A DNA stretch of 64,000 bases from Mobula hypostoma. Its lineage: Eukaryota. The notes below the pieces were generated by a model, which made no database searches, had not been told where the DNA came from, and was given only the letters and a program-made list of their open reading frames with translations. The position numbers and the translations under genes were made by a program. Each line of letters starts with the position of its first letter. Position 1 is the first letter of the stretch. This document shows positions 49,685 to 64,000 of this stretch, piece by piece. The DNA lies in assembly GCF_963921235.1 (NCBI RefSeq), contig NC_086108.1, forward strand, positions 2,728,001 through 2,792,000. Direction: 5' to 3'.

Positions 49685-49912
49685 CGTTAAAAGCAAGGGA
49701 AGGGGTTGCTGTTTCCTAAATCCAATCCTGTCATTGACGGAGTGACATTGCCAGTTACGGAAAGAGCAATAAAGATTGAAGAGTATAGCATGCATTACTG
49801 CACCATGTCTGTCCCCGCTTTGGACTATAACAGTACAGAGCCAGAGCAGTGGGTGAGAGGCCGGCGTGACACAACAAAGGATGGTCAGGGTCATTGGAGC
49901 CAAGCACAAGCC

Positions 49913-49996
49913 TCATCCCCGCCGGATCTCTCTCAGTTTCTCAGCAACCTCCTTCAGTTCCTTCTCGATCTCAGCAAGGTTCCTCAGCTTACCAAC
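49913..49996 (-). CDS. CCER2: Terminal coding exon of a granin-family (CCER2/chromogranin-like) gene: VGKLRNLAEIEKELKEVAEKLREIRRG*
   Basis: Hand translation. Preceded on the minus strand by a branch-like CTAAC/CTGAC, a pyrimidine tract and CAG (ctgtctgacttccccag|GTT), phase 0, with TGA at 49915-49913. Aligns without gaps to the recalled chromogranin A C-terminus DQELESLSAIEAELEKVAHQLQALRRG (12/27 identical, ends RRG). Confidence 0.88.
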   Translation of the reverse strand, partial: VGKLRNLAEIEKELKEVAEKLREIRRG

Positions 49997-50131
49997 CTGG
50001 GGAAGTCAGACAGAGTGGGTCAAAAGTTAGAAATCAGCTCCATTCACCTTTTCCGATTGTCTGCCGGTGACGGTCCGAAAGGGTCAGGGTTCTTCCTATA
50101 TCGTGTGTCAGTGCTTTGGCGGATGGAATCG

Positions 50132-51026
50132 ATAGCTTTGTGGATAATATAAAGATGGGTGGAGCGGCAGGTTGTGTTGAGGAAGCAAGGTGTCTGTATA
50201 GAAGGACTTGGACAGATTAGAAGAATGGGCAAAGAAACGGCAGATGGAATACAGTGTCGGGAAGTGTATGTTGGGCTGGAATAAAGGTATCAATTATTTT
50301 CTAAATGAGGAAAAAATTCAGAAATCAAAGGTGCAAAGCGACTTGGGAGTCCTTGTGCAGGATTCCCCAAAGGTTAACTTGCAGGTTGAATTGGTGGTGA
50401 GGAAGGAAAATGCAGTGTTAGCATTCATTTTGAGAGGACTAGAATGTAAGCAAAGATTACTGAGGCTTTATAAAGCACTGGTCAGACTGTGAGTAGTTGC
50501 GGGCCCCTTATCCAAGGTGTGCTGACATTTGACAGGGCCCAGAGAAGGTTCACAAGGATGATTCCAGGAATAGAAGTATTAATGTATGAGGAGTGTTTGA
50601 TGATTCCGTGTCTGTACAACCGGAATTTAGAAGAATGGGGGGCACCTCATTGAAACACATCAGATGTTGAAAGGTTTAGTCAGAGTGGATGTGGAGATAA
50701 TGTTTTCTATTGTGTGGGGGGCGGGGGGGGGGGAGTCTAAGACCAGAGGATACAGACTCAGAATAGAAAGACACTCCTTTAGAACAGAGGTGAAGAGTAA
50801 TTTCTTCATCATTGCTATAGAGGGCTGTGAAGGCCCCGTCATTGGGTACATTTCAAGTGAAGGTTGATAGGTTCTTGATTAGTCAGGGTGTCATAGGTTA
50901 CATGAAGACAGCAGGAGAATGGGGTTGAGAGGGATAATAAATCAGCCAAGATGGAATGTCCGAGCAGACTCAGTTGGCTGAATGGCCTAATTTTGTTCCA
51001 ATGTCTTATGGTCATATGGCCTTATA
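50132..51026 (+). mobile_element. Degraded CR1 LINE 3' fragment
   Basis: DRLEEWAKKRQMEYSVGKC...DLGVLVQD...LYKALVR and LKGLVRVD...TRGYRLRI...FRTEVKSNFF in broken frames. Ends with GAATGGCCTAATT and a (CTTATGGT)-like tail. Confidence 0.9.
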
Positions 51027-51096
51027 CATTTACATGTATTAGGAATTTGCTGTGGTGTATGTAGGCTGGTCCCTGAGAATCTCTGTAGTGTTCCCA

Positions 51097-51540
51097 AAGT
51101 TCAAAGTCCAAAGTAAATATATTATCAAAGAATGCATATCTTACCATATACTTCCAAAAGATTTATTTTCTTGCAAGCATTTACAACAAAAATAAAGAAA
51201 GACGTTTGCAAACTACGTATACATAAATAAAGACTGGCATAACTAATGTGCAAGAGACAAATTGTGCAAATAAAATATAAATAATAGAGAATAGGAGTTG
51301 TAAAGTCTTTGAAAGTGAGTCTGTAGTTTGTGGAATCAGTTCAGAGTTGTGGTGAGTGAAGTTATCCACACTGGTTCAGGAGCCTGATGGTTGTGGGGTA
51401 ATAACTGTTCCTGAACCTGGTGGTGTGGGACCTGAGGCTCCTGTACCTCCTCCCCGATGGCAGCATGGTCTGGGTGGTGGGGTCTTTGATGATGGACGCT
51501 GCTTTCCTACAACAGCGCTCCATGTAGATGTGCTCAGTGA
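51097..51540 (-). mobile_element. 3' end of a Rex1/Babar-like LINE (host copy 1), continuing for ~30 bp at 53331-53362
   Basis: Minus translation IYMERCCRKAASIIKDP...LPSGRRYRSLRSHTTRFRNSYYPTTIRLLN, a C-terminal motif recalled from Rex1/Babar-type LINEs. AT-rich 3' UTR ending in a (TTTGAAC)-like tail near 51097. Confidence 0.8.
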
Positions 51541-53331
51541 TAGAAACATAGAAACATAGAAAATAGGTGTAGGAGTAGGCCATTCGGCCCTTCGAGCCTG
51601 CACCGCCATTTATTATGATCATGGCTGATCATCCAACTCAGAACCCCTGCCCCAGCCTTCCCTCCATACCCCCTGATCCCTTTAGCCACAAGGGCCATAT
51701 CTAACTCCCTCTTAAATATAGCCAATGAACCGGCTTCAACTGTTTCCTGTGGCAGAGACTTCCACAGATTCACCACTCTCTGTGTGAAGAAGTTTTTCCT
51801 AATCTCAGTCCTAAAAGGCTTCCCCTTTATCGTCAAACTGTGACCCCTCATTCTGGACTTCCCCAACATCGGGAACAACCTTCCTGCATCTAGCCTGTCC
51901 AATCCCTTTAGGATTTTATACGTTTCAATCAGATCCCCCCTCAATCTTCTAAATTCCAACGAGTATAAGCCCAGTTCATCCAGTCTTTCTTCATATGAAA
52001 GTCCTGCCATCCCAGGAATCAATCTGGTGAACCTTCTTTGTACTCCCTCTATGGCAAAGATGTCTTTCCTCAGATTAGGGGACCAAAACTGCACACAATA
52101 CTCCAGGTGTGGTCTCACTAAGGCCTTGTACAACTGCAGTAGTACCTCCCTGCTCCTGTACTCGAATCCTCTCGCTATAAATGCCAGCATACCATTCGCT
52201 TTTTTCACCGCCTGCTGTACCTGCATGCCCACTTTCAGATTCAGATAATAATCTATTTTCCTGTTTTTGCCACCAAAGTGGATAACTTCACACTTATCCA
52301 CATTAAATTGCATCTGCCATGAACTTGCCCACTCACCCAACCTATCCAAGTCACTCTGCATCCTCTTAGCATCCTCCTCACAGCTAACACTGCCACCCAG
52401 CTTCGTGTCATCCGCAAACTTGGAGATGCTGCATTTAATTCACTCATACAAGTCATTAACATATATTGTAAACAACTGGGGTCCCAGCACTGAGCCTTGC
52501 GGTACCCCACTAGTCACCGCCTGCCATTCTGAAAAGGTCCCGTTTATTCCCACTCTTTGCTTCCTGTCTGCTAACCAATTCTCTATCCACATCAATACCT
52601 TACCCCCAATACCGTGTGCTTTAAGTTTGCACACTAATCTCCTGTGTGGGACCTTGTCAAAAGCCTTTTGAAAATCCAAATATACCACATCCACTGGTTC
52701 TCCCCTATCCACTCTACTAGTTACATCCTCAAAAAATTCTATGAGATTCGTCAGACATGATTTTCCTTTCACAAATCCATGCTGACTTTGTCCGATGATT
52801 TCATTGCTTTCCAAATGTGCTGTTATCACATCTTTGATAACCGACTCCAGCAGTTTCCCCACCACCGACGTTAGGCTAACCGGTCTATAATTCCCCGGTT
52901 TCTCTCTCCCTCCTTTTTTAAAAAGTGGGGTTACATTAGCCACCCTCCAATCTTCAGGAACTAGTCCAGAATCTAACGAGTTTTGAAAAATTATCACTAA
53001 TGCATCCACTATTTCTTGGGCTACTTCCTTAAGCACTCTGGGATGCAGACCATCTGGCCCTGGGGATTTATCTGCCTTCAATCCCTTCAATTTACCTAAC
53101 ACCACTTCCCTACTAACATGTGTTTCGCTCAGTTCCTCCATTTCACTGGACCCTCTGTCCGCTACTATTTCTGGAAGATTATTTATGTCCTCCTTAGTGA
53201 AGACAGAACTAAAGTAATTATTCAATTGGTCTGCTATGTCCTTGTTCCCCATGATCAATTCACCTGTTTCTGTCTGCAGGGGACCTACATTTGTCTTTAG
53301 CAATCTTTTCCTTTTTACATATCTATAAAAG
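51541..53331 (-). mobile_element. Young 5'-truncated CR1 LINE (RT domain, C-terminus, 3' UTR); pseudogenised
   Basis: ORFs 52440-53303 and 51534-52361 share a frame (GPDG, NYRPVSLTS, LDFQKAFD, GVPQGSVLGP), split by GGA>TGA at 52440-52442. Net 60-bp in-frame deletion near 52238. (CTATGTTT)n tail at 51541-51560. Near-identical to 59552-61403. Confidence 0.96.
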
Positions 53332-53419
53332 ATGGGGGGGCGGTTTCCTTGTGAAGGGCTGGTGGGAACATTCTACCTCTAACTTAGGTTATTGGTGTAT
53401 TGATTAACCATGTTTCGAG

Positions 53420-53530
53420 CAGCAGACAAAATGCTGGAGGAATTCAGCAGGTCAGGCAGCATCTACGGAAGGGAATGAACAGTCAACGTTTTGGGCCGGA
53501 ATGTTTCATCAGGATCTGATGAAGGGTCTC
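53420..53530. mobile_element. Penelope-like terminal-repeat remnant with decayed hammerhead-ribozyme motif, head-to-head
   Basis: ACAAAATGCTGGAGGAATTCAGCAGGTCAGGCAGCATCT... followed by the hairpin TTCATCAG-GAT-CTGATGAA. Minus strand reads TC-CTGATGA-AACATTCCGGCCC-AAAAC-GTT-GACTG. Confidence 0.55.
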
Positions 53531-53550
53531 CACTATTTATTCACTTTCTC

Positions 53551-53870
53551 TCAGTCATCAAGGACATCCACCATCCAGGCCACGCTCTCTGCTTGCTGCT
53601 TCCATCAGGAAGGAGGTATAGCAGCCTATGGACTCAGGAACAGTTATTACCCCACAACCATCAGGCTCCTGAACCAGTGTGGATAACTTCACTCACCACG
53701 ATGAGCCTCAGGTCCCACACCACCAGGTTCAGGAACAGTTATTACCCCACAACCATCAGGCTCCTGAACCAGTGTGGATAACTTCACTCACCACAACTCT
53801 GAACTGATTCCACAATCTAGGGATGAACTTTCAAGGACTTGACAACTTATATTCTTTTTTTAAAATCTAT
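53551..53870 (+). mobile_element. Rex1/Babar-like LINE 3' end (host copy 2, part 1) with internal duplication
   Basis: VIKDIHHPGHALCLLLPSGRRYSSL and SLRSHTTRFRNSYYPTTIRLLN. A 66-bp exact direct repeat lies at 53634-53699 and 53729-53794. Confidence 0.82.
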
Positions 53871-54735
53871 CAGAGAAGCACAGCACAGAAACAGGCCCTT
53901 CAGCCCATCTAGTCCATGCCAAAACTTCCATTGACCTGCAAGGGGACCACAGCCCTCCAGACGCTTGTATCTATCCTAACTTCTCTCACGTTCAAATTGA
54001 GCCCACATGCACTACTTGTGCTGGCAGTTCATTCCACATTCACACGACTCTCGGCGTGAAGAAGTTTCCCCTCATGTTTCCCTTAAAGTTCTCACCTTTC
54101 ACCTTTAACTCATGATCTCTGGCTGTAGTCAAACCTAACCTCAGTGCAAAAAGCCTGCTTGCATTTACCCTTTCTATACTGCTCATAATTTTGTATACCT
54201 CTATCAAATCTCCTCTCAAGCTTCCACCTTCTAAAGAATACAGAGCTAACCTACTCAACCTTTTCTTTTCACTCAGGTCCTCCAGACCCGCCAACGTCCT
54301 TGTAAATTTTCTTTGTACTCTTTCAACCTTATTTACATCTTTCCTGTAGGTAGGTGGCCAAAACTGCACACAATACTCCAAATTGGGCCTCACAAACGTC
54401 TTATACAACTTCAACATAACATCCCATCTCCTGTACTCAGTACTTTGATTTATGAAGGCCAATGGGCCAAAAGCTTTCTTCACAACCCTATCTACCTGTG
54501 ATGCCACTTTCAATGAATTATGTACTTGAATTCCCCAATTCGATTGTTCTACCACGCTCCTCACTGCCCTACCATTCACTGTGTAAGATCTACCCTGGCT
54601 GGTCCTACCCAAGGGCAACACCATGCACTTGTCCGCATTCAATTCCATCTGCCATTTTTCCGGCAGATGCAGATACCCCTGTAAGCTATGATAGCCTCCC
54701 TCACTGTCCACTATGCTCCCCATCTTGGTGTTATC
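53871..54735 (-). mobile_element. Degraded CR1 LINE 3' fragment
   Basis: ORF 54040-54723: KWQMELNADKC...LYKTFVRPNLEYCVQFW...LRGDLIEVYKIM...NFFTPRVV. 3' UTR CAGCACAGAAACAGGCCC at the left end. Confidence 0.92.
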
Positions 54736-54875
54736 TATCTATCTATTATTTGCAAAGTCTTTCTTCTGTAGTTCAGTTGTTTGTCAGTCTTTGTGTGTAG
54801 TTTTTCATTGATTCTATTGTAATTCTCCATTCTACAGTGAATGCCCATAGGAAACTTAAACCTCAGGATTGTATA
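54736..54875 (+). mobile_element. Rex1/Babar-like 3' UTR (host copy 2, part 2); tail resumes at 56942-56998
   Basis: TTTGTCAGTCTTTGTGTGTAGTTTTTCATTGATTCTATT is homologous to 59441-59480 and to the reverse complement of ~51180-51240. 56942-56998 is the TATGGTGACATAT...TTTGATAATAAATTTACTTTGAGCTTTGAAC tail. Confidence 0.72.
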
Positions 54876-56941
54876 CAAGACTATAAGATATAGGAGCAGA
54901 AGTAGGCCATTTGGCTCATCGAGTCTGCTCTGCCATTCAATCATGGGCTGATCCAATTCTTCCAGTCATCCCCACTCCCCTGTCTTCTCCCCATACCCTT
55001 TGATGGCCTGGCTAATCAAGAACTTATCTATCTCTGCCTTAAATGCACTTAATGACTTGGCCTCCACAGCCTCTCGTGGCAACAAATTCCACAGAATTAC
55101 CACCCTCTGACTAAAGTAATTTCTCCGCATCTCTGTTCAAAATGGGCGTCCTTCAATCCTGAAGTCATTCCCTCTTGTCATAGATTCCCCTACCATGCGA
55201 AATAACTTTGTCCTATCTAATCTGTTCAGCCTTTTAACATTCAGAATGTCTCTATGAGATCCCCCCTCATTCTCCTGAACTCCAGGGAATACAGCCCAAG
55301 AGCTGCCAGACATTCCTCATACGGTAACCCTTTCATTCCTGGAATCATTCTCGTGAATCTTCTCTGAACCCTCTCCAATGTCAGTATATCCTTTCCAAAA
55401 TAAGGAGCCCAAAACTGCACACAATACTCCATGTGTGGTCTCACGAGTGCCTTATAGAGCCTCAATATCACATCCCTGCTCTTTAATTCTGCACCTCTAG
55501 AAATGAATTCCAACATTGCATTCGCCTTCTTCACCACCAACTCAACCTGGAGGTTAACCTTTAGGGTATCCCGCACAAGGACTCCCAAGTCTCTTTGCAT
55601 CTCTGCATTTTGAATTCTCCCCCCATCTAAATAATAGTCTGCCTGTTTATTTCTTCCACCAAAGTGTATGACCATACATTTTCCAACATTGTATTTCATT
55701 TGCCACTTCTTTGCCCATTCCCCTAAACTAAGTATCTCTATTTCAACACTACCTGCTCCTCCACCTATCTTTGTATCATTGGCAAATTTAGCCACAAATC
55801 CATTAATACTGTAGTCCAAATCATTGATATACATTGTAAAAAGCAGTGGTCCCAACACCAACTCCTGTAGAACTCCACTGGTAACCGGCAGCCAGCCAGA
55901 ATAGGATCCCATTATTCCCACTCTCTGTTTTCTGCCGATCAGCCAATGCTCCACCCATGAAGTAACTCCCCTGTAATTCCATGGGCTCTTATCTTGCTAA
56001 GCAGCCTCATGTATGGCACCTTGTCAAAGGCCTTTTGAAAATCCAAGTACACCACATCTACTGCATCTCCTTTGTCTACCCTGCTTGCAACTTCCTCAAA
56101 GAATTGCAGTAGGTTTGTCAGGCAGGATTTTCCTTTCAGGAAACCATGCTGGCTTTGGCCTATCTTGTCACGTGCCTCCAGGTACTTCGTAATCTCATTC
56201 CTAACAATCGATTCCAACAACTTCCCAACCACTGATGTCAGGCTAACAGGTCTATAGTTTCCTTTCTGCTGCCTCCCACCCTTCTTAAATAGTGGAGTAA
56301 CATTTGCAATTTTCCAGTCATCTGGTACAATGCCAGAATCTATCGATTCTTGAAAGATCATCGTTAATGCCTCCCCAATCTCCCCAGTTACTTCCTTCAG
56401 AACCCAAGGGTGCATTCCATCAGGCTCAGGAGATTTATCCACCTTCAGACCATTAAGCTTCCTGAGCATCTTCTCAGTCATAATTTTCACTGCAAAAACT
56501 TCACTTCCCTGACACTCTTGAATGTCCGGTATACTGCAGATGTCTTCCACTGTGAAGACTGATGCAAAATACACATTCAGTTCCTCTGTCATCTCTGCAT
56601 CTCTCATCACAATATCTCCAGCATCATTTTGTATTGGTCCTACATCTACCCTCGACTCTCTTTTACCGTTTATGTATTTAAAAAAGCATTTAGTATCTTC
56701 TTTGATATTAGTCACCAGCTTCCTTTCATAATTCATCTTTTCCTTCCTAATGACCTTCTTAGTTTCCTTCTGCAAGTTTTTAAAAGCTTCCCAATCCTCT
56801 ACTTTCCCACGAGCTCTGTCTTCCTTGTATGTCCTCTCTTTTGCTTTTACTTTGGCTCTGACTTCACTTGTCAGCCACGGTAGTGTCCTTCTTCCCTTTG
56901 AAAAATTCTTCTTATTTGGAATATATCTGTCCTGCACTTCC
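54876..56941 (-). mobile_element. 5'-truncated CR1 LINE of a different subfamily, frameshifted RT
   Basis: ORFs 55939-57000 (PWLT, NYRPVSLTSVVGKLLE, LDFQKAFD) and 55241-55954 (YINDLD, FANDTK, RPHMEYCVQFW) are in different frames, with the shift near 55960. Tail CAAGACTATAAGATATAGG on + at 54876. Confidence 0.95.
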
Positions 56942-57299
56942 ACATATGGTGACATATGTATACACACTTTGATAATAAATTTACTTTGAGCTTTGAACAT
57001 GAGGTCATCCAGTTGTTAGCAGAGATCTATAGGAGGAAGCTTGCCGTGCTGGTTGCAGTGCTGACGGCTGGAACTGGGCATACCCAGCCACTGAGCATTC
57101 TGCGGTGCACGGAGGTTACAAAAAAGGTGTTTTCGAAACGTACGTCTTCCTTCCCCTAATCTGTTCCGACAAGCGAAGGTCTGCCCTTGTGGCTTCGAGA
57201 GTTCTGCATTGTGACATATCCTGTCTCTATTCCTGCCTGGTTCAGCATGGCTGGTGCAAACACTTCCCCAAACCAACAAACGTCAACGTAAACGCGGGA

Positions 57300-57495
57300 G
57301 GGGTTAGGTTTCGGGTTTGTAGGTTGTCAGCATGCTACGTTGGTGCTGGAAGTGTGATGACACTGATAGGCCTATCACTGGACTGTGATGGTGTTGACAC
57401 ATAACTACACATTTCACTGTATGCTTCCATTCTTTAAAAATTAAAGATCCTTATTTGTCGCGTGTACATCAAAACATACAGTGAACTGTGTTCTT
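57300..57495. mobile_element. Two SINE-like 3' remnants, tail-to-tail
   Basis: CACATTTCACTGTATGC (~57408-57424, +) faces ACATACAGTGAACTGTG (~57474-57490), its near reverse complement. Resembles a chondrichthyan SINE tail from memory. Confidence 0.5.
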
Positions 57496-57502
57496 TGAAG
57501 GA

Positions 57503-57571
57503 CAGTACTATGCAATACCCAAAGGCACAAAAATATAGTGGGTGGGGGCCTGAGACTTTTGCACGGTACTG
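57503..57571. mobile_element. Tiny degenerate MITE with Tc1/mariner-like CAGT ends
   Basis: Left CAGTACTATGCAATACCCAAAGGC versus reverse complement of right end CAGTACCGTGCAAAAGTCTCAGGC (17/24 match). The right end is followed by TA. Confidence 0.55.
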
Positions 57572-57823
57572 TAGTAATTTTATGTATTGCACTGTACTAC
57601 TGCCACAAAAAAAAACAAATTTCATGATATGCGAATGATGATGAACCTGATTCTGATATGGGTTTCTATTGTGGACTGAGAGTGGGAAGGGAGCAGGAAC
57701 AGGGGATTCATGGTTGGAAAAAGGCAAGAGAGAGGGGAGGGAGTGGGAAGCACCAGAGAGACATTCTGTAATGATCAATAAACCAATTGTTTGGAATCAA
57801 ATGACCTTGCCTGGTGTCTCAGG
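57572..57823. repeat. Unclassified interspersed repeat adjoining the MITE
   Basis: Non-coding, with an A-run, purine-rich block and ATCAATAAACC. Recalled as a frequent batoid interspersed repeat, which cannot be verified within the window. Confidence 0.4.
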
Positions 57824-57837
57824 AGACAGACAGACAG

Positions 57838-57871
<34 letters not shown>

Positions 57872-57897
57872 ACGTGCACACGCACACACACACGTGC

Positions 57898-57936
<39 letters not shown>

Positions 57937-57956
57937 GACACACACACACACACACA
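57824..57956. repeat. Compound (GACA)n(CA)n microsatellite with CG interruptions
   Basis: Directly visible, including two CACGTGCACACGCACA interruptions. Confidence 0.98.
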
Positions 57957-58404
57957 AGACCACCACATACATATCCAATTTGCAAACGAGGACAAATCAT
58001 GCAAACAGGAAAAAACAACATGGTAAACAAAAAGACATCGACTACGAACGGGCAGAGTCCCCGAAAGCGAGCCACGACGGTGGAGCCCGTTCAGTGCTGA
58101 TCAGAGTGGAGTCTCTGCCCTGAAGCTCCATGCTCGCACGGCAGCAGCTGCTCCCAAACCTGCAGCGTGCGTCCCAAGACTCCTGCACTCCCCACCAACG
58201 ATAGTAGCGAGAGGAGGGAGACTACTCAAATGCAGGCAGATGCAGCCGAACTCTGCTTCATTGAACCCACAAGTTAAGTTTGTCTTCCGCTACCAAGATG
58301 GCACCCCAACTGTACCTGCACTCTTGAGAGTCTAGTCCGCCGAATCCGCTAGATCAGTTACCTCGCTGTAGGTGGTGTTTTCCGCGCCCTTGTGTCATCA
58401 TAGA

Positions 58405-58703
58405 GCACAGAAGTGTCATGATAAAGGCAGCACAACAGCATCCTTTACTTCCTTAGAAGCTTGCACAGATTCCGCCTGTCTCCGAAAACCATGACAAACT
58501 TCTATAAATAGCGGAGAGTATCCTGACTGGTTGCATTACAGCCTGGAACTGAAACGCTTACAAAGAGTGTGGACACAACCCGGTCCATCACAGGCAAAGC
58601 CCTCGCCACCACTGAGCACATTTACACGGAGCAGAGCTCTGTCACACACATCATCGAGCCTCCTGAACCAGCCTGGATAACTTCACCCACCACTACCCTG
58701 AAC
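58405..58703 (+). mobile_element. Rex1/Babar-like LINE fragment (host copy 3, part 1); continues at 59338-59551 and 62271-62305
   Basis: Broken frames give LYFLRSLHRF..SPKTMTNFY, ESILTGCITAW and DTTRSITGKALATTEHIY. CTCCTGAACCAG..TGGATAACTTCAC is shared with host copies 1 and 2. Confidence 0.78.
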
Positions 58704-59337
58704 CATAGAACCATAGAAACTACAGCACAGAAACAGGCCCTTTGGCCCTTCTTGGCTGTGCCGAACCATTTTCTGCCTAGTCCCACTGACCTGCACACGG
58801 ACCATATCCCTCCATACACCTCCCATCCATGTATCTGTCCAACTTATTCTTAAATGTTAAAAAAGAACCCACATTTACCACCTCGTCTGGCAGCTCATTC
58901 CATACTCCCACCACTCTCTGTGTGAAGAAGCCCCTCCTAATGTTCCCTTTAAACTTTTCCCCCCTCACCCTTAACCCATGTCCTCTGGTTTTTTTCTCCC
59001 CTTGCCTCAGTGGAAAAAGCCTGCTTGCATTCACTCTATCTATACCCATCATAATTTTATATACCTCTATCAAATCTCCCTTCATTCTTCTACGATCCAG
59101 GGAATAAAGTCCTAACCTATTCAACCTTTCTCTGTAACTGAGTTTCTCAAGTCCCGGCAACATCCTTGTAAACCTTCTCTGCACTCTTTCAACCTTATTT
59201 ATATCCTTCCTGTAATTTGGTGACCAAAACTGAACACAATACTCCAGATTCGGCCTCACCAATGCCTTATACAACCTCATCATAACATTCCAGCTCTTAC
59301 ACTCAATACTACAATTAATAAAGGCCAATGTACCAAA
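58704..59337 (-). mobile_element. CR1 LINE 3' fragment with a 5-bp target-site duplication (TGAAC)
   Basis: ORF 58777-59328 (LYKALVRPNLEYCVQFWSP...FFTQRVVGVWNELP). Tail (CATAGAAC)n on +. TGAAC at 58699-58703 and 59338-59342. Confidence 0.95.
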
Positions 59338-59551
59338 TGAACTGATTCCCTGATCTGTAAACTCGCTTTCCAGGACTCTGACAACTGATGCTCCCGGTAT
59401 TGTTTTTATTTACAGTCTGTCTTCTTTTGAACACTAGTTCTTTGTCAGTCTTTATGTATAGTTCTTCATAAATTCTATTCCATTTCTTTTTTCCCTGTAG
59501 AAGTCTGCAAGAACATGAATCTAAAGGCAGTGGATGGTAACAGATACATAT
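59338..59551 (+). mobile_element. Rex1/Babar-like 3' UTR (host copy 3, part 2)
   Basis: TGAACTGATTCC...CTTTCCAGGACTCTGACAACT parallels 53800-53847. The remainder parallels 54750-54875. Confidence 0.75.
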
Positions 59552-62270
59552 CATAGAAACATAGAAACATAGAAAATAGGTGCAGGAATAGGCCATTCGG
59601 CCCTTCGAGCCTGCACTGCCATTTATTATGATCATGGCTGATCATCCAACTCAGAACCCTGCACCAGCCTTCCCTCCATACCCCCTGACCCCTGTAGCCA
59701 CAAGGGCCATATCTAACTCCCTCTTAAATATAGCCAATGAACTGGCCTCAACTGTTTCCTGTGGCAGAGAATTCCACAGATTCACCACTCTCTGTGTGAA
59801 GAAGTTTTTCCTAATCTCAGTCCTAAAGGGCTTCCCCTTTATCCTCAAACTGTGACCCCTCGTTCTGGACCTCCCCAACATCGGGAACAATCTTCCTGCA
59901 TCTAGCCTGTCCAATCCCTTTAGGATCTTATACGTTTCAATCAGATCCCCCCTCAATCTTCTAAATTCCAACGAGTACAAGCCCAGTTCATCCAGTCTTT
60001 CTTCATATGAAAGTCCTGCCATCCCAGGAATCAATCTGGTGAACCTTCTTTGTACTCCCTCTAAGGCAAGGATGTCTTTCCTCAGATTAGGGGACCAAAA
60101 CTGCACACAATACTCCAGGTGTGGTCTCACCAAGGCCTTGTACAACTGCAGTAGTACCTCTCTGCTCCTGTACTCGAATCCTCTTGCTATAAATGCCAGC
60201 ATACCATTCTCCTTTTTCACCGCCTGCTGTACCTGCATGCCCACTTTCAATGACTGGTGTATAATGACACCCAGGTCTCGTTGCACCTCCCCTTTTCCTA
60301 ATCAGCCACCATTCAGATAATAATCTGTTTTCCTATTTTTGCCACCAAAGTGGATAACTTCACATTTATCCACATTAAATTGCATCTGCCATGAATTTGC
60401 CCACTCACCCAACCTATCCAAGTCATCCTGCATCCTCTTAGCATCCTCCTCACTGCTAACACTGCCGCCCAGCTTCATGTCATCCGCAAACTTGGAGATG
60501 CTGCATTTAATTCCCTCATCCAAGTCATTAATATATATTGTAAACAACTGGGGTCCCAGCACTGAGCCTTGCGGTACCCCACTAGTCACCGCCTGCCATT
60601 CTGAAAAGGTCCCGTTTATTCCCACTCTTTGTTTCCCGTCTGCTAACCAATTCTCTAACCACATCAATACCTTACCCCCAATACCGTGTGCTTTAAGTTT
60701 GCACACTAATCTCCTGTGTGGGACCTTGTCAAAAGCCTTTTGAAAATCCAAATATACCACATCCACTGGTTCTCCCATATCCACTCTACTAGTTACATCC
60801 TCAAAAAATTCTATGAGATTCGTCAGACATATTTTCCCTTTCACAAATCCATACTGACTTTGTCCGATGATCTCACTGCTTTCCAAATGTGCTGTTATCA
60901 CATCTTTGGTAACTGACTCTAGCAGTTTCCCCACCACCGACGTTAGGCTAACCGGTCTATAATTCCCCGGTTTCTCTCTCCCTCCTTTTTTAAAAAGTGG
61001 GGTTACATTAGCCACCCTCCAATCCTCAGGCACTAGTCCAGAATCTAACAAGTTTTGAAAAAATATCACTAATGCATCCACTATTTCTTGGGCTACTTCC
61101 TTAAGCACTCTGGGATGCAGACCATCTGGCCCTGGGGATTTATCTGCCTTCAATCCCTTCAATTTACCTAACACCACTTCCCTACTAACATGTATTTCGC
61201 TCATTTCCTCCATCTCACAGGACCCTCTGTCCCCTACTATTTCTGGAAGATTATTTATGTCCTCCTTAGTGAAGACAGAACCAAAGTAATTATTCAATTG
61301 GTCTGCCATGTCTTTGCTCCCCATAATCAATTCACCTGTTTCTGTCTGCAGGGGACCTACATTTGTCTTTACCAGTCTTTTCCTGTTTACATATCTATAA
61401 AAGCTTTTACAGTCAGTTTTTATGTTCCCTGCCAGTTTTCTCTCATAATCTTTGTTCCCCTTCCTAATTAAGCCTTTTGTCCTCCTCTGCTGAACTCTGA
61501 ATTTCTCCCAGTCCTCAGGTGAGCCACTTTCTCTGGCTAATTTGTATGCTTCTTCTTTGGAATTGATACTATCCCTAATTTCTCTTGTCAGCCACGGGTG
61601 CACTACCTTCCTTGATTTATTCTTTTGCCAAACTGGGATGAACAATTGTAGTTCATCCATGCAATCTTTAAATGCTTGCCATTGCATATCCACCGTCAAT
61701 CCTTTAAGTGTCATTTGCCAGTCTATCTTAGCTAATTCATGTCTCATACCTTCAAAGTTACCCCTCTTTAAGTTCAGAACCTTTGTTTCTGAATTAACTA
61801 TGTCACTCTCCATCTTAATGAAGAATTCCACCATATTATGGTCACTCTTACCCAAGGGGCCTCTCACGACAAGATTGCTAATTAACCCTTCCTCATTGCT
61901 CAAAACCCAGTCCAGAATAGCCTGCTCTCTAGTTGGTTCCTCGACATGTTGGTTCAGAAAACCATCCCGCATACATTCCAAGAAATCCTCTTCCTCAGCA
62001 CCTTTACCAATTTGGTTCACCCAATCTACATGTAGATTGAAGTCACCCATTATAACTGCTGTTCCTTTATTGCACACATTTCTAATTTCCTGTTTAATAC
62101 CATCTCCGACCTCACTACTACTGTTAGGTGGCCTGTACACAACTCCCACCAGCGTTTTCTGCCCCTTAGTGTTACGCAGCTCTACCCATATCGATTCCAC
62201 ATCTTCCCGGCTTATGTCCTTCCTTTCTATTGCGTTAATCTCATCTTTAACCAGCAACGCCACCCCACCT
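59552..62270 (-). mobile_element. Young CR1 LINE, 5'-truncated inside the APE endonuclease domain; ORF2 broken by one nonsense codon
   Basis: APE motifs (GGVALLV, VYRPP, GDFN, LDWVL, SDH) and RT motifs (GPDG, LDFQKAFD, PQGSVLGP, FADD). ORFs 60302-62398 and 59651-60286 are in the same frame, separated by TGA at 60304-60302. (CTATGTTT)n tail. Confidence 0.97.
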
Positions 62271-62324
62271 CTTGAGAATATACTTTGAAAGTTTGAACTT
62301 TGAATCTCATTGTGTGCCTTGTAT

Positions 62325-63044
62325 TGTGGACTAGACAGGGCAGGACTTACACAGGGACATGGCAATACAGATCCATAATTCCTCGGAAGTGTCATCATAG
62401 ATAGATAGGGTCATAAGCTTTTGGCACATTGGCCTTCATAAGTCAAAGTCTTCAGTACAGGAGATGGGATGTTATGTCGAAGTTTGGTGAGGGCAAATTT
62501 GGAGTATTGTGTGCAGTTGTGATCACCTGTCTACAGAAAAGATGTCAATAAGCTTGAAAGAGTGCAGAGAAAATTTACAAGCATGTTGCTGGGACTTGAG
62601 GACCTGAGTTATAGGTTACGACTTTCTCCCCTGGAATGTAGAAGATTGAGGGGAGATTTGATAGTAGTATACAAAATTATAGGTAGGGGTTTAAAATTAT
62701 ATTAAGGGTAAATGCAGGCAAGCTATTTCCACTGGGGTTGGGTGAGACTAGGACTAAAGGTCATAGGTTATGGGAGAAAGGTCAAATATTTAAAGAGAAC
62801 ATGACAAGGAACTTCTTCACTTAAAGGGTGGTGTGCATGTAGTACGTGTTATCAGCAGAAGAGGTGGATACAGGTTCAAATGCAACATTTAAGAGAAGTT
62901 AGGATAGGTACATGGATGGGAAGGGTATGGGGGGGGGGGGCTATAGTCCAGGTGCGAGTCAATGGAACTAGGAAGAGTAACAGTTCAGCACAGATAGATG
63001 GGCCGAAGGGCGTGTTTCTGTGCTGCAGTGTTCTATACTCTATA
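62325..63044 (+). mobile_element. Degraded CR1 LINE 3' fragment ending ~47 bp from the exon donor
   Basis: AATTTGGAGTATTGTGTGCAG (NLEYCVQ), GAAAGAGTGCAGAGAAAATTTACAAG (ERVQRKFT), and a 3' UTR GATGGGCCGAAGGG..TGTTTCTGTGCTG with a CTAT-type tail. Confidence 0.9.
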
Positions 63045-63091
63045 ATCATCACCTTCACCTGGGGAAATGGAGAAAACCTATTTTTACCAAC

Positions 63092-63939
63092 CTCATATTT
63101 CACTCTCTTTTCTTCTTCCTCTCCCTCCTCCTCTTCATCCTCACTATCCTCTTCTTTGCTGCTTTCCAAATCACGGTTCCTCTTCCACTCCTGTTCAATC
63201 TCACCCTCGTGTCTCTTCTTCAAGTCCACGCTAAAGTGATGGTGTCTCTTATCCTCGATCTCCTGTTGCTCGAGGGATTGCTTGCTACCCTCTCCCTGCA
63301 GGTGGGTTCCGACCCCCAGCATCTTCATCCCTTTCTGCCCTGCTTCAAACTGATCAGTCTCTTCATCACTGGCATTCTCCTGAACTCGCTTCTCAACACT
63401 CACCGGTCCGTGCTTGTTCCCCGTGCTGCCATCATCTTTCCCTTCACCCCAGTGTTTCTTCCCTCCTTGCTGGTTTCCCAGTTCCTGCTTGGCGATCTTC
63501 TTGAGGAGCTCATCGATCTTGAGGAGGTCACGTTCCTCTTGCCCAACCTCACTGGAACTTTGATCCTCCTCAGATGACTCACCATGCCTCCTCTCAGAAC
63601 TTTCTTTGTCTTTATCAACAACCTCTTCCTTGCTCGCATGGACCACTGCCTTGGTGTCATCTTTACTGTTAACAGCTTCCTTGTCTTCGTGTTGTTCCTC
63701 CATGTTCAGCTCTTCGCTTTTCTTGTTCTGCTCTTTGCTTTTCCTGTATCGCACCATGTCTTCCTCTTCCTTTGAAAGGAGATCCTTCTTCACATGGGAT
63801 CCTCCTTGGCCATTGAGATCTTCCCCCCTTTCATCCCTCTTCTCCAAATTCTCTGCCTCATTCCACTCTGTGACTCCTGCCATCGGGTAGTTCCACTTCT
63901 TGTCACCATTGAGAGACCTTTGCTTGGCTGAACTCTCTC
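63092..63939 (-). CDS. CCER2: Large internal exon (848 nt) of an acidic granin-family secretory precursor, CCER2-like; upstream exons lie outside the window
   Basis: Acceptor ttgtgtttcttgtccacag|GA (phase 1) and donor GAG|GTTGGT (phase 0, compatible with the terminal exon). Glu/Lys-rich with about 13 dibasic sites. EKRVQENASDEETDQFEAGQKGMKMLG resembles the recalled human CCER2 segment [27 protein letters not shown], followed by a His run. The gene symbol is from memory and is less certain than the exon. Confidence 0.85.
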
Positions 63940-64000
63940 CTGTGGACAAGAAACACAAGGGTTAAAACATTCGAGGATGTTGCCATGAGGAAAGATGGGA

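Follow-up and report, generated by a model that had tools for sequence, protein, structure and literature searches.

In this study, we examined a granin-family gene on the minus strand of a 64,000-nucleotide stretch of ray DNA (C50:2728001-2792000 of a 3.48-Gb genome; hereafter the window, in which position 1 is the first letter). Judged from its sequence, this six-exon gene of 394 residues is probably a regulated-secretory granin of a myliobatiform ray and the cartilaginous-fish orthologue of coiled-coil domain-containing glutamate-rich protein 2 (CCER2), which would make CCER2 a third member of the family of chromogranin A (CHGA) and chromogranin B (CHGB). Chromogranins A and B, the core matrix proteins of dense-core granules, have been regarded as a two-member set, the former serving as a standard tumour marker. 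A first-pass annotation of the window had proposed that two of its exons belong to the CCER2 orthologue, preserved in a more ancestral form, and that this would place CCER2 among the chromogranin paralogues; this proposal gains support from profile searches, from an internal motif shared with CCER2, from separate CHGA and CHGB loci in the same genome and from a SIRT2-type exon on the same chromosome.

A six-exon gene and its spliced transcript

The gene spans C50:2777913-2821312 on the minus strand, with a coding sequence of 1185 nt in six coding exons and with five introns that are all GT-AG. Exons 5 and 6 lie in the window, and exons 1-4, which were located with the Hemitrygon orthologue as a guide and by reading of splice sites, lie outside it, 6-29 kb past its end. 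In the following list exons 1-4 are given in C50 coordinates and all other features in window positions.

Exon 1: C50:2821312-2821267, minus strand; start codon and most of the signal peptide
Exon 2: C50:2801111-2801065, minus strand
Exon 3: C50:2798651-2798561, minus strand; two-Cys loop
Exon 4: C50:2798321-2798253, minus strand; vasostatin-like helix
Coding exon 5 of six: 63092..63939, minus strand; 848 nt, residues 85-367, encoding the acidic core of the granin; acceptor ccacag, donor gttggt; covered by contigs X1 record 1, X2 record 8 and X7 record 23
Codons of the conserved internal peptide: 63323..63391, minus strand; K268-K290, with the KR pair first, containing ASDEETDQFEAGQKG including an S-x-E site
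Intron 5: 49997..63091, minus strand; 13,095 nt, GT..AG, missing from the contigs that carry both exons
Coding exon 6 of six: 49913..49996, minus strand; 84 nt, 27 codons and the stop; C-terminal granin motif, corresponding to the CHGA C-terminus
3' untranslated region, directly seen part: 49800..49912, minus strand; X1 record 1

It had been suggested in the first-pass annotation that exons 5 and 6, although 13 kb apart, are spliced to each other, and this was seen in sequencing data. Four public sequencing runs were mapped on 49800-64000; their library type is unrecorded, so that RNA is a guess only. In run X1, a single contig of 1701 nt covers 63149-63940 (record positions 453-1244) as well as 49800-49998 (record positions 1300-1498), and the 55 letters between the two blocks are 63148..63094, a stretch of exon 5 that had been masked as repeat. 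A 1741-nt contig in run X2, which derives from another, related organism and shows 15 mismatches, bridges the two exons likewise, and a 705-nt contig in run X7 also joins exon 5 to exon 6 without the intron. The join at 63092/49996 is therefore present in contigs of three runs from two studies, one contig having a depth of about 170, and these contigs, which lack the 13-kb intron, represent a processed transcript despite the unrecorded library type. The exact position of the junction can be shifted by about 10 nt, as AG fits both sides; GT-AG borders are obtained only at 63092|49996, and the mRNA is identical whichever junction is chosen. Past the mapped stretch 203 letters of the X1 contig remain, a length which implies that the 3' untranslated region continues to about 49597.

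The first 8 nt of intron 5 (GTTGGTAA; window positions 63084-63091) are identical to the start of exon 6 (49989-49996), and read-through and splicing consequently both yield V-G-K. This tripeptide is found at the junction only in the source ray and in Mobula, and other elasmobranchs have E-H-E/K, E-R-R or D-D-E. The Mobula birostris protein P0003 (NCBI) has the identical junction and is 96% identical over exon 5.

Exon 5 ends with ...EEEEKRVKYE in phase 0, and exon 6, which is directly preceded by ...ccccag, is translated as VGKLRNLAEIEKELKEVAEKLREIRRG followed by the stop codon. As the first-pass annotation had remarked, exon 6 is missing from the list of open reading frames (ORFs) of at least 50 amino acids, because an in-frame TGA 12 nt upstream limits its open frame to about 31 codons. 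Its 27 residues match the last 24 positions (562-585 of 585) of the Pfam Granin model with an E value of 0.007 and were aligned with the C-termini of CHGA, CHGB and CCER2; a comparison with the PDB gave designed coiled coils only, which is uninformative. On direct reading, RNLAEIEKEL satisfies the PROSITE granin pattern ([DE]-[SN]-L-[SAN]-x2-[DE]-x-E-L) at every position except the first, exactly as had been claimed, and the chromogranin A ending quoted beside it agrees with that of bat CHGA, which ends DQELESLSAIEAELEKVAHQLQALRRG. A Pfam scan of exon 5 alone gave no match, and no longer homologues of exon 5 were found when these were sought.

The joined protein consists of a predicted signal peptide, a two-Cys N-terminal loop, a vasostatin-like helix, a long acidic core and the C-terminal granin motif; the signal peptide and loop exons that had been expected upstream are exons 1 and 3 on C50. 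Exon 3 reads VTRCIAEVISDTLSKPSLPLSDEC.. and matches positions 7-39 of PF01271 at 21 bits. Cys35 and Cys55 are the sole cysteines of the mature chain, which has an isoelectric point of 5.0, 25.8% Asp+Glu, 15 dibasic sites and 13 S-x-E sites. Three orthologues, P0003 (33.4 bits), P0004 (37.5 bits) and P0171 (42 bits), score above the 25-bit gathering cut-off of Pfam Granin.

About 200-250 bp upstream of the start codon (C50:2821505-2821560) there are TATA-like boxes (TATAATA and TATTTAAAAA), and the same stretch contains the octamer TGACATCA, which is one mismatch away from the cAMP-response element for which chromogranin promoters are known. The exact element, TGACGTCA, is absent from the sequence upstream of exon 1 (L004). 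An ORF scan of the 230-kb upstream flank returned 1314 ORFs, 666 of them single-copy, and is too coarse for short vertebrate exons.

Affinity to CCER2 and to chromogranins A and B

A search with exon 5 returned eight elasmobranch proteins, all with a Pfam Granin match, among them those of Mobula birostris (96% identity), Hemitrygon (88%), Pristis, Amblyraja, Scyliorhinus and Heterodontus, and these proteins are named either 'uncharacterized' or 'chromogranin-A-like'. The gene is conserved across at least ten elasmobranch species with its motifs invariant, and the internal peptide encoded at 63323..63391 forms invariant columns in alignments A1-A3. When a profile of the eight elasmobranch orthologues was searched against 1.84 billion representative sequences, 88 matches were obtained, and the best of those from outside the elasmobranchs are full-length matches to proteins that NCBI names CCER2, such as those of the caecilian Geotrypetes (E 6.7e-49) and the amphisbaenian Rhineura (E 3.3e-43). 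The best confirmed match of CHGA type has an E value of 3.4e-30, and most are far weaker and chiefly N-terminal. In the reverse direction, a CCER2 profile gave 240 matches; among the 120 listed it retrieves CCER2 of reptiles, amphibians, coelacanth and mammals together with the elasmobranch proteins of Chiloscyllium (1.8e-40), Carcharodon (2.2e-40) and Pristis (2.2e-37), which lie in the range of the mammalian CCER2 scores. Comparison of profile with profile (hhalign) aligned the elasmobranch set with CCER2 over 364 columns at an E value of 2.2e-52, and with CHGA over 90 N-terminal columns only at 6.2e-37. Across the 104 proteins compared, the motif [AP]S[DE][EK]ET.QF was found without exception in those of elasmobranch or CCER2 type and in not one of CHGA type. 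No species with both the elasmobranch and the CCER2 type occurs among the search matches listed.

The likeness to CCER2 extends along the chain. Both proteins share the loop exon VT[RK]C...C..ILKEDERVLAM.HHQ..L.ELEEL, the KR-preceded ASDEET.QFEAE.KG peptide, a KKRHH block and a C-terminal ELK..AEKLRE.RRG. Non-mammalian CCER2 proteins score above the 25 bits of Pfam Granin in coelacanth (32), caecilian (35.6), amphisbaenian (39.9) and turtle (28.9), and CCER2 of the frog Rana reaches 6 bits only, below the cut-off. None of four mammalian CCER2 proteins has a Pfam Granin match at E <= 10; they are shorter (about 266-280 amino acids), end in ..RREG, lack an alignable vasostatin-like segment and have extra cysteines after the loop. 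In chimpanzee CCER2 (P0185) the loop survives in degenerate form (..TRCLAEVV..C..), as do the internal peptide and the C-terminal helix. From these sequences mammalian CCER2 appears to have kept these three elements and to have lost recognisable Pfam similarity.

With CHGA the present protein shares the signal peptide, the two-Cys loop and the vasostatin-like helix (46% identity over 90 columns), an acidic core with dibasic sites and a C-terminal helix ending in RRG; the first four exons match in content, and each of the two genes has an ITPK1-type gene as its convergent neighbour. However, past the N-terminal 90 columns there is no similarity apart from the C-terminal helix, the CHGA-specific blocks VM[KN]C, RGDER and EEGSANR are absent, and the C-terminal motif has ELK where CHGA has ELE. 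The protein resembles CHGB in its loop start, VTRC as in the CHGB exon of the source genome, in the C-terminal granin motif and, going by the familiar exon count of CHGB, in having a large acidic penultimate coding exon and a short last one. It differs from CHGB in the C-terminus, which in CHGB is ..NLAAMDLELEKIAEKM.. and includes NLAAMDLEL, and in location, as the CHGB locus lies on C22 beside TRMT6.

A tree was calculated with IQ-TREE from 34 rows and 97 columns (loop and helix, and C-terminus), rooted on the source genome's own partial CHGB exons; these columns are the only ones alignable across all groups. The case for CCER2 orthology comes mainly from the internal region, which the tree columns omit. 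In this tree a CHGA clade (94/84) that includes Callorhinchus, Scyliorhinus and Narcine excludes the clade of the present gene, and the elasmobranch clade (92/96) is joined with CCER2 and an Albula protein at 92/87. The order within the joint clade is that of the species tree, namely elasmobranchs, coelacanth and tetrapods, and mammalian CCER2 sits on a branch of 2.4 substitutions per site. Forcing the elasmobranch clade together with chondrichthyan CHGA was rejected in the approximately unbiased (AU) test (log-likelihood difference, delta lnL, 33.2; p 0.0017). The tree thus excludes a shark-specific duplicate of CHGA, and it favours orthology with CCER2 without proving it.

The Albula protein (P0077 from the bonefish Albula goreensis, 203 amino acids, 'Chromogranin A' in UniRef) is placed within the CCER2 clade, where its branch is long, and has neither the internal motif nor a Pfam Granin match. 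Possibly it represents what is left of CCER2 in ray-finned fishes, a group from which no protein is found among the 120 listed matches of the CCER2 profile. In a lamprey protein (P0078 from Lampetra fluviatilis, 508 amino acids, 'uncharacterized protein'), a loop of granin type is combined with a C-terminal motif, with a Pfam match of 16 bits at positions 540-585, and the C-terminal ..AAMELELE.. resembles CHGB; this protein could help in rooting the granin family. A quick full-length tree with a lamprey root was set aside as unreliable, since the root fell inside CCER2 and long branches were joined.

Chromogranin loci, synteny and alternative relationships

Chromogranin loci were found by a Pfam Granin scan of the genome, by exon reading and by scans for neighbouring gene families.

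C1 locus: CHGA-type loop exon at C1:2156682; neighbours GOLGA5 at 1.94-1.97 Mb and ITPK1 at 2.20 Mb
C22 locus: CHGB-type loop and C-terminal exons at 82.16-82.18 Mb; neighbour TRMT6 at 82.13 Mb
C50 locus: the present gene; neighbour a second ITPK1-like gene at 2.672-2.696 Mb

GOLGA5 and ITPK1 on the one hand and TRMT6 on the other are what we take to be the classical neighbours of human CHGA and CHGB. Since the genome holds a distinct CHGA on C1 and a distinct CHGB on C22, the present gene is a third chromogranin-type locus, separate from both. At E <= 0.001 exon 5 matches the genome at its own locus only, and GOLGA5 was found only on C1, beside the CHGA-type loop exon. CHGA and ITPK1 on C1, and the granin gene and the ITPK1-like gene on C50, both form convergent pairs, and these twin arrangements suggest a block duplication. 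The ITPK1-like gene (C50:2672077-2695864, about 32 kb before the window start) has Pfam Ins134_P3_kin matches of 71 and 46 bits; the score of its second exon is below that of the corresponding C1 exon, and the extended frame of this exon contains a TAG.

The human CCER2 neighbourhood at 19q13.2 presumably includes SIRT2, NFKBIB, SARS2 and MRPS12. Compared with the PDB, a sirtuin class-I exon at C50:3359321 matches SIRT2 best (60.3 bits versus 58.2 for SIRT3), and SIRT3 proper lies on C45 (138.9 versus 119); further sirtuin exons on C64 and C78 look like what we take to be SIRT1 and SIRT4. Because of its best PDB match and because SIRT3 is already on C45, the C50 exon is, as far as its sequence tells, SIRT2, at 0.54 Mb from the granin gene. 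MRPS12 is located on the same chromosome, at C50:9.455 Mb. SARS2 was not found, in that a genome scan with Seryl_tRNA_N gave one significant match, on C52, and is uninformative. Synteny with the human CCER2 region is thus partial. In the checks by phylogeny and synteny that the first-pass annotation had named, the gene groups with CCER2 at 92/87 and the ordinary CHGA and CHGB loci lie elsewhere; a CHGA grouping is not rejected, and the gene neighbourhood is conserved only in part.

A number of observations weigh against the assignment to CCER2. The outgroup of the tree is one partial CHGB of about 58 residues, and a topology that unites the elasmobranch clade with CHGA as a whole survives the test (delta lnL 3.71, AU p 0.093). 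When the six long rows (mammals, Albula and lamprey) are left out, the grouping with CCER2 drops to 85/64 and the CHGA alternative is again not rejected (delta lnL 0.97, AU p 0.22); in this reduced tree the CHGA (93/84), elasmobranch (94/95) and CCER2 (91/84) clades are retained and their mutual order is weak. With regard to synteny, the SIRT2 assignment comes from one 49-residue exon plus elimination, MRPS12 is 6.6 Mb distant from the granin gene, and of the five usable 19q13.2 markers C50 carries two, SIRT2 and MRPS12: FBA-domain genes occur on C75 only, Paf1 is on C40, and the CSN8/PSD8/EIF3K matches (EIF3K/PSMD8-type) are on C40 and C18. In addition, the whole-protein Pfam scores are those of the orthologues (P0003 being 96% identical) and not of the joined 394-residue protein, and the runs that show the exon 5/6 splice have no RNA library record.

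Several of these points would also be expected if the elasmobranch gene were an ancient separate paralogue, a fourth product of the early duplications that was kept only in cartilaginous fishes, with CCER2 as its nearest kin and with reciprocal loss of the two. The CHGA, elasmobranch and CCER2 clades are each supported in a weak mutual order, the Paf1 and EIF3K/PSMD8-type matches lie off C50, and reciprocal loss likewise predicts that elasmobranch proteins are all of one type and those of bony vertebrates all of the other. We consider this reading unlikely, though it is the strongest competitor of CCER2 orthology: it requires two extra losses, and no species with both types is found among the search matches listed. 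Moreover, the branching of the joint clade tracks the species tree, the KR-peptide and KKRHH blocks are part of a stretch of 364 columns over which the two proteins are collinear, and SIRT2 is 0.54 Mb away.

It is considerably less probable again, and in our opinion highly improbable, that the gene is a CHGA duplicate that arose within cartilaginous fishes and that its likeness to CCER2 is convergent or ancestral. Such an origin would agree with the NCBI name 'chromogranin-A-like' in Pristis, Amblyraja, Scyliorhinus, Heterodontus and Carcharodon, with the CHGA-like loop region EVISDTLSKP and with an ITPK1-like neighbour as at CHGA. However, the forced grouping with chondrichthyan CHGA costs 33.2 log-likelihood units (AU p 0.0017), the CHGA clade with its three cartilaginous fishes leaves the gene out, similarity to CHGA ends after 90 columns with the EEGSANR block absent, and the ITPK1-like neighbour is itself a second copy, pointing to duplication of a block. 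Finally, the idea that these are non-functional sequences, either two open frames paired by chance or a pseudogene decaying among repeats, can for practical purposes be dismissed: exon 6 is just 84 nt long, the donor GTTGGT is weak, the intron is LINE-filled and a 49-kb satellite starts 850 bp past the stop, but spliced contigs are present in three runs, one at a depth of about 170, the 394-codon frame in six GT-AG exons is intact, and the gene is conserved in at least ten elasmobranch species with invariant motifs.

Predicted processing, significance for CCER2 and further observations

By analogy with chromogranins A and B, the first 18 residues would serve as a signal peptide for entry into the endoplasmic reticulum, and a Cys35-Cys55 bond would close an N-terminal loop that aids sorting to dense-core granules. 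The acidic core, with 26% Asp+Glu, could then bind calcium and aggregate in the acidic, calcium-rich trans-Golgi, leading to granule formation, and prohormone convertases may cut at a subset of the 15 dibasic sites. The likely conserved products are two, namely the KR-preceded internal peptide, whose S-D-E matches the FAM20C (Golgi kinase) consensus, and a C-terminal peptide of about 31 residues after K362-R363, which may be compared with serpinin of chromogranin A. We tentatively put forward a wider scenario, whose chances as a whole we place somewhat short of even: CCER2 would be a true third chromogranin, a CHGA ohnologue born together with the second ITPK1 in the early vertebrate duplications, and a granule-forming prohormone whose most conserved product would be the KR-preceded, probably phosphorylated ..ASDEET.QFEAE.KG.. 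peptide, its core unchanged from rays to humans.

If CCER2 is indeed a chromogranin, this so far uncharacterised secreted protein of humans acquires a testable role in mechanosensory and neuroendocrine cells, as a component of the granule matrix and a precursor of peptides, and the conserved internal peptide becomes a candidate bioactive peptide. CCER2 reportedly appears in studies of cochlear hair cells and of small-cell lung cancer. Family membership would also provide a rationale for its value in Merkel cell carcinoma, a neuroendocrine tumour of which CCER2 is described as a marker (PMC12623243); human CCER2 has been measured in plasma (PMC13088631). In the literature searched, with subscription journals and supplements lying outside the search, no paper was found that links CCER2 to the granins or to secretory granules, none that has CCER2 in its title, and none on chromogranins as ohnologues; the two reports just cited merely mention CCER2 and chromogranin side by side. 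The ray, shark, coelacanth and amphibian genes act as a bridge, as they pass the Pfam test that mammalian CCER2 fails and profile searches link them to it at E values of about 1e-40. The convergent CHGA/ITPK1 and granin/ITPK1-like pairs would provide a clean marker for reconstructing the duplication of the family.

The novelty of this assignment has to be qualified, as the link is in part already contained, unremarked, in the databases: in the 'chromogranin-A-like' names, in the Pfam Granin matches of many non-mammalian CCER2 proteins and in the UniRef names of some reptile and frog CCER2 proteins, which are already 'Secretogranin' or 'Chromogranin A'. What is new is that CCER2 is assigned to this family, the gene itself being already annotated by pipelines in related species under misleading names.

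Of all Pfam Granin matches in the genome, the highest score (63.6 bits) belongs to one uninterrupted frame of 652 codons at C9:64760203-64761765. This is possibly secretogranin II, which is encoded in one exon in other vertebrates.

Intron 5 is densely filled between window positions 50200 and 62700 with fragments of long interspersed nuclear elements (LINEs) on both strands, encoding reverse transcriptase and endonuclease, and related sequences are very abundant in the mapped runs. A (CA)n run is located at about 57800-58000. The LINE-type ORFs in the intron are as follows.

51534-53372: LINE-type ORF
52440-53372: LINE-type ORF
55241-57015: LINE-type ORF
60302-62410: LINE-type ORF, a 702-codon endonuclease and reverse-transcriptase frame

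Between the granin gene and the ITPK1-like gene there is a satellite array of about 49 kb (window positions 27-49063), which ends 850 bp past the granin stop codon and may extend beyond the window start. It is built from a 24-25-bp unit with a consensus near CTCCCCCCACTCTCTCAATCTCTCC, its copies match at 82-84%, and its plus strand is nearly free of G (GC skew about -0.96).

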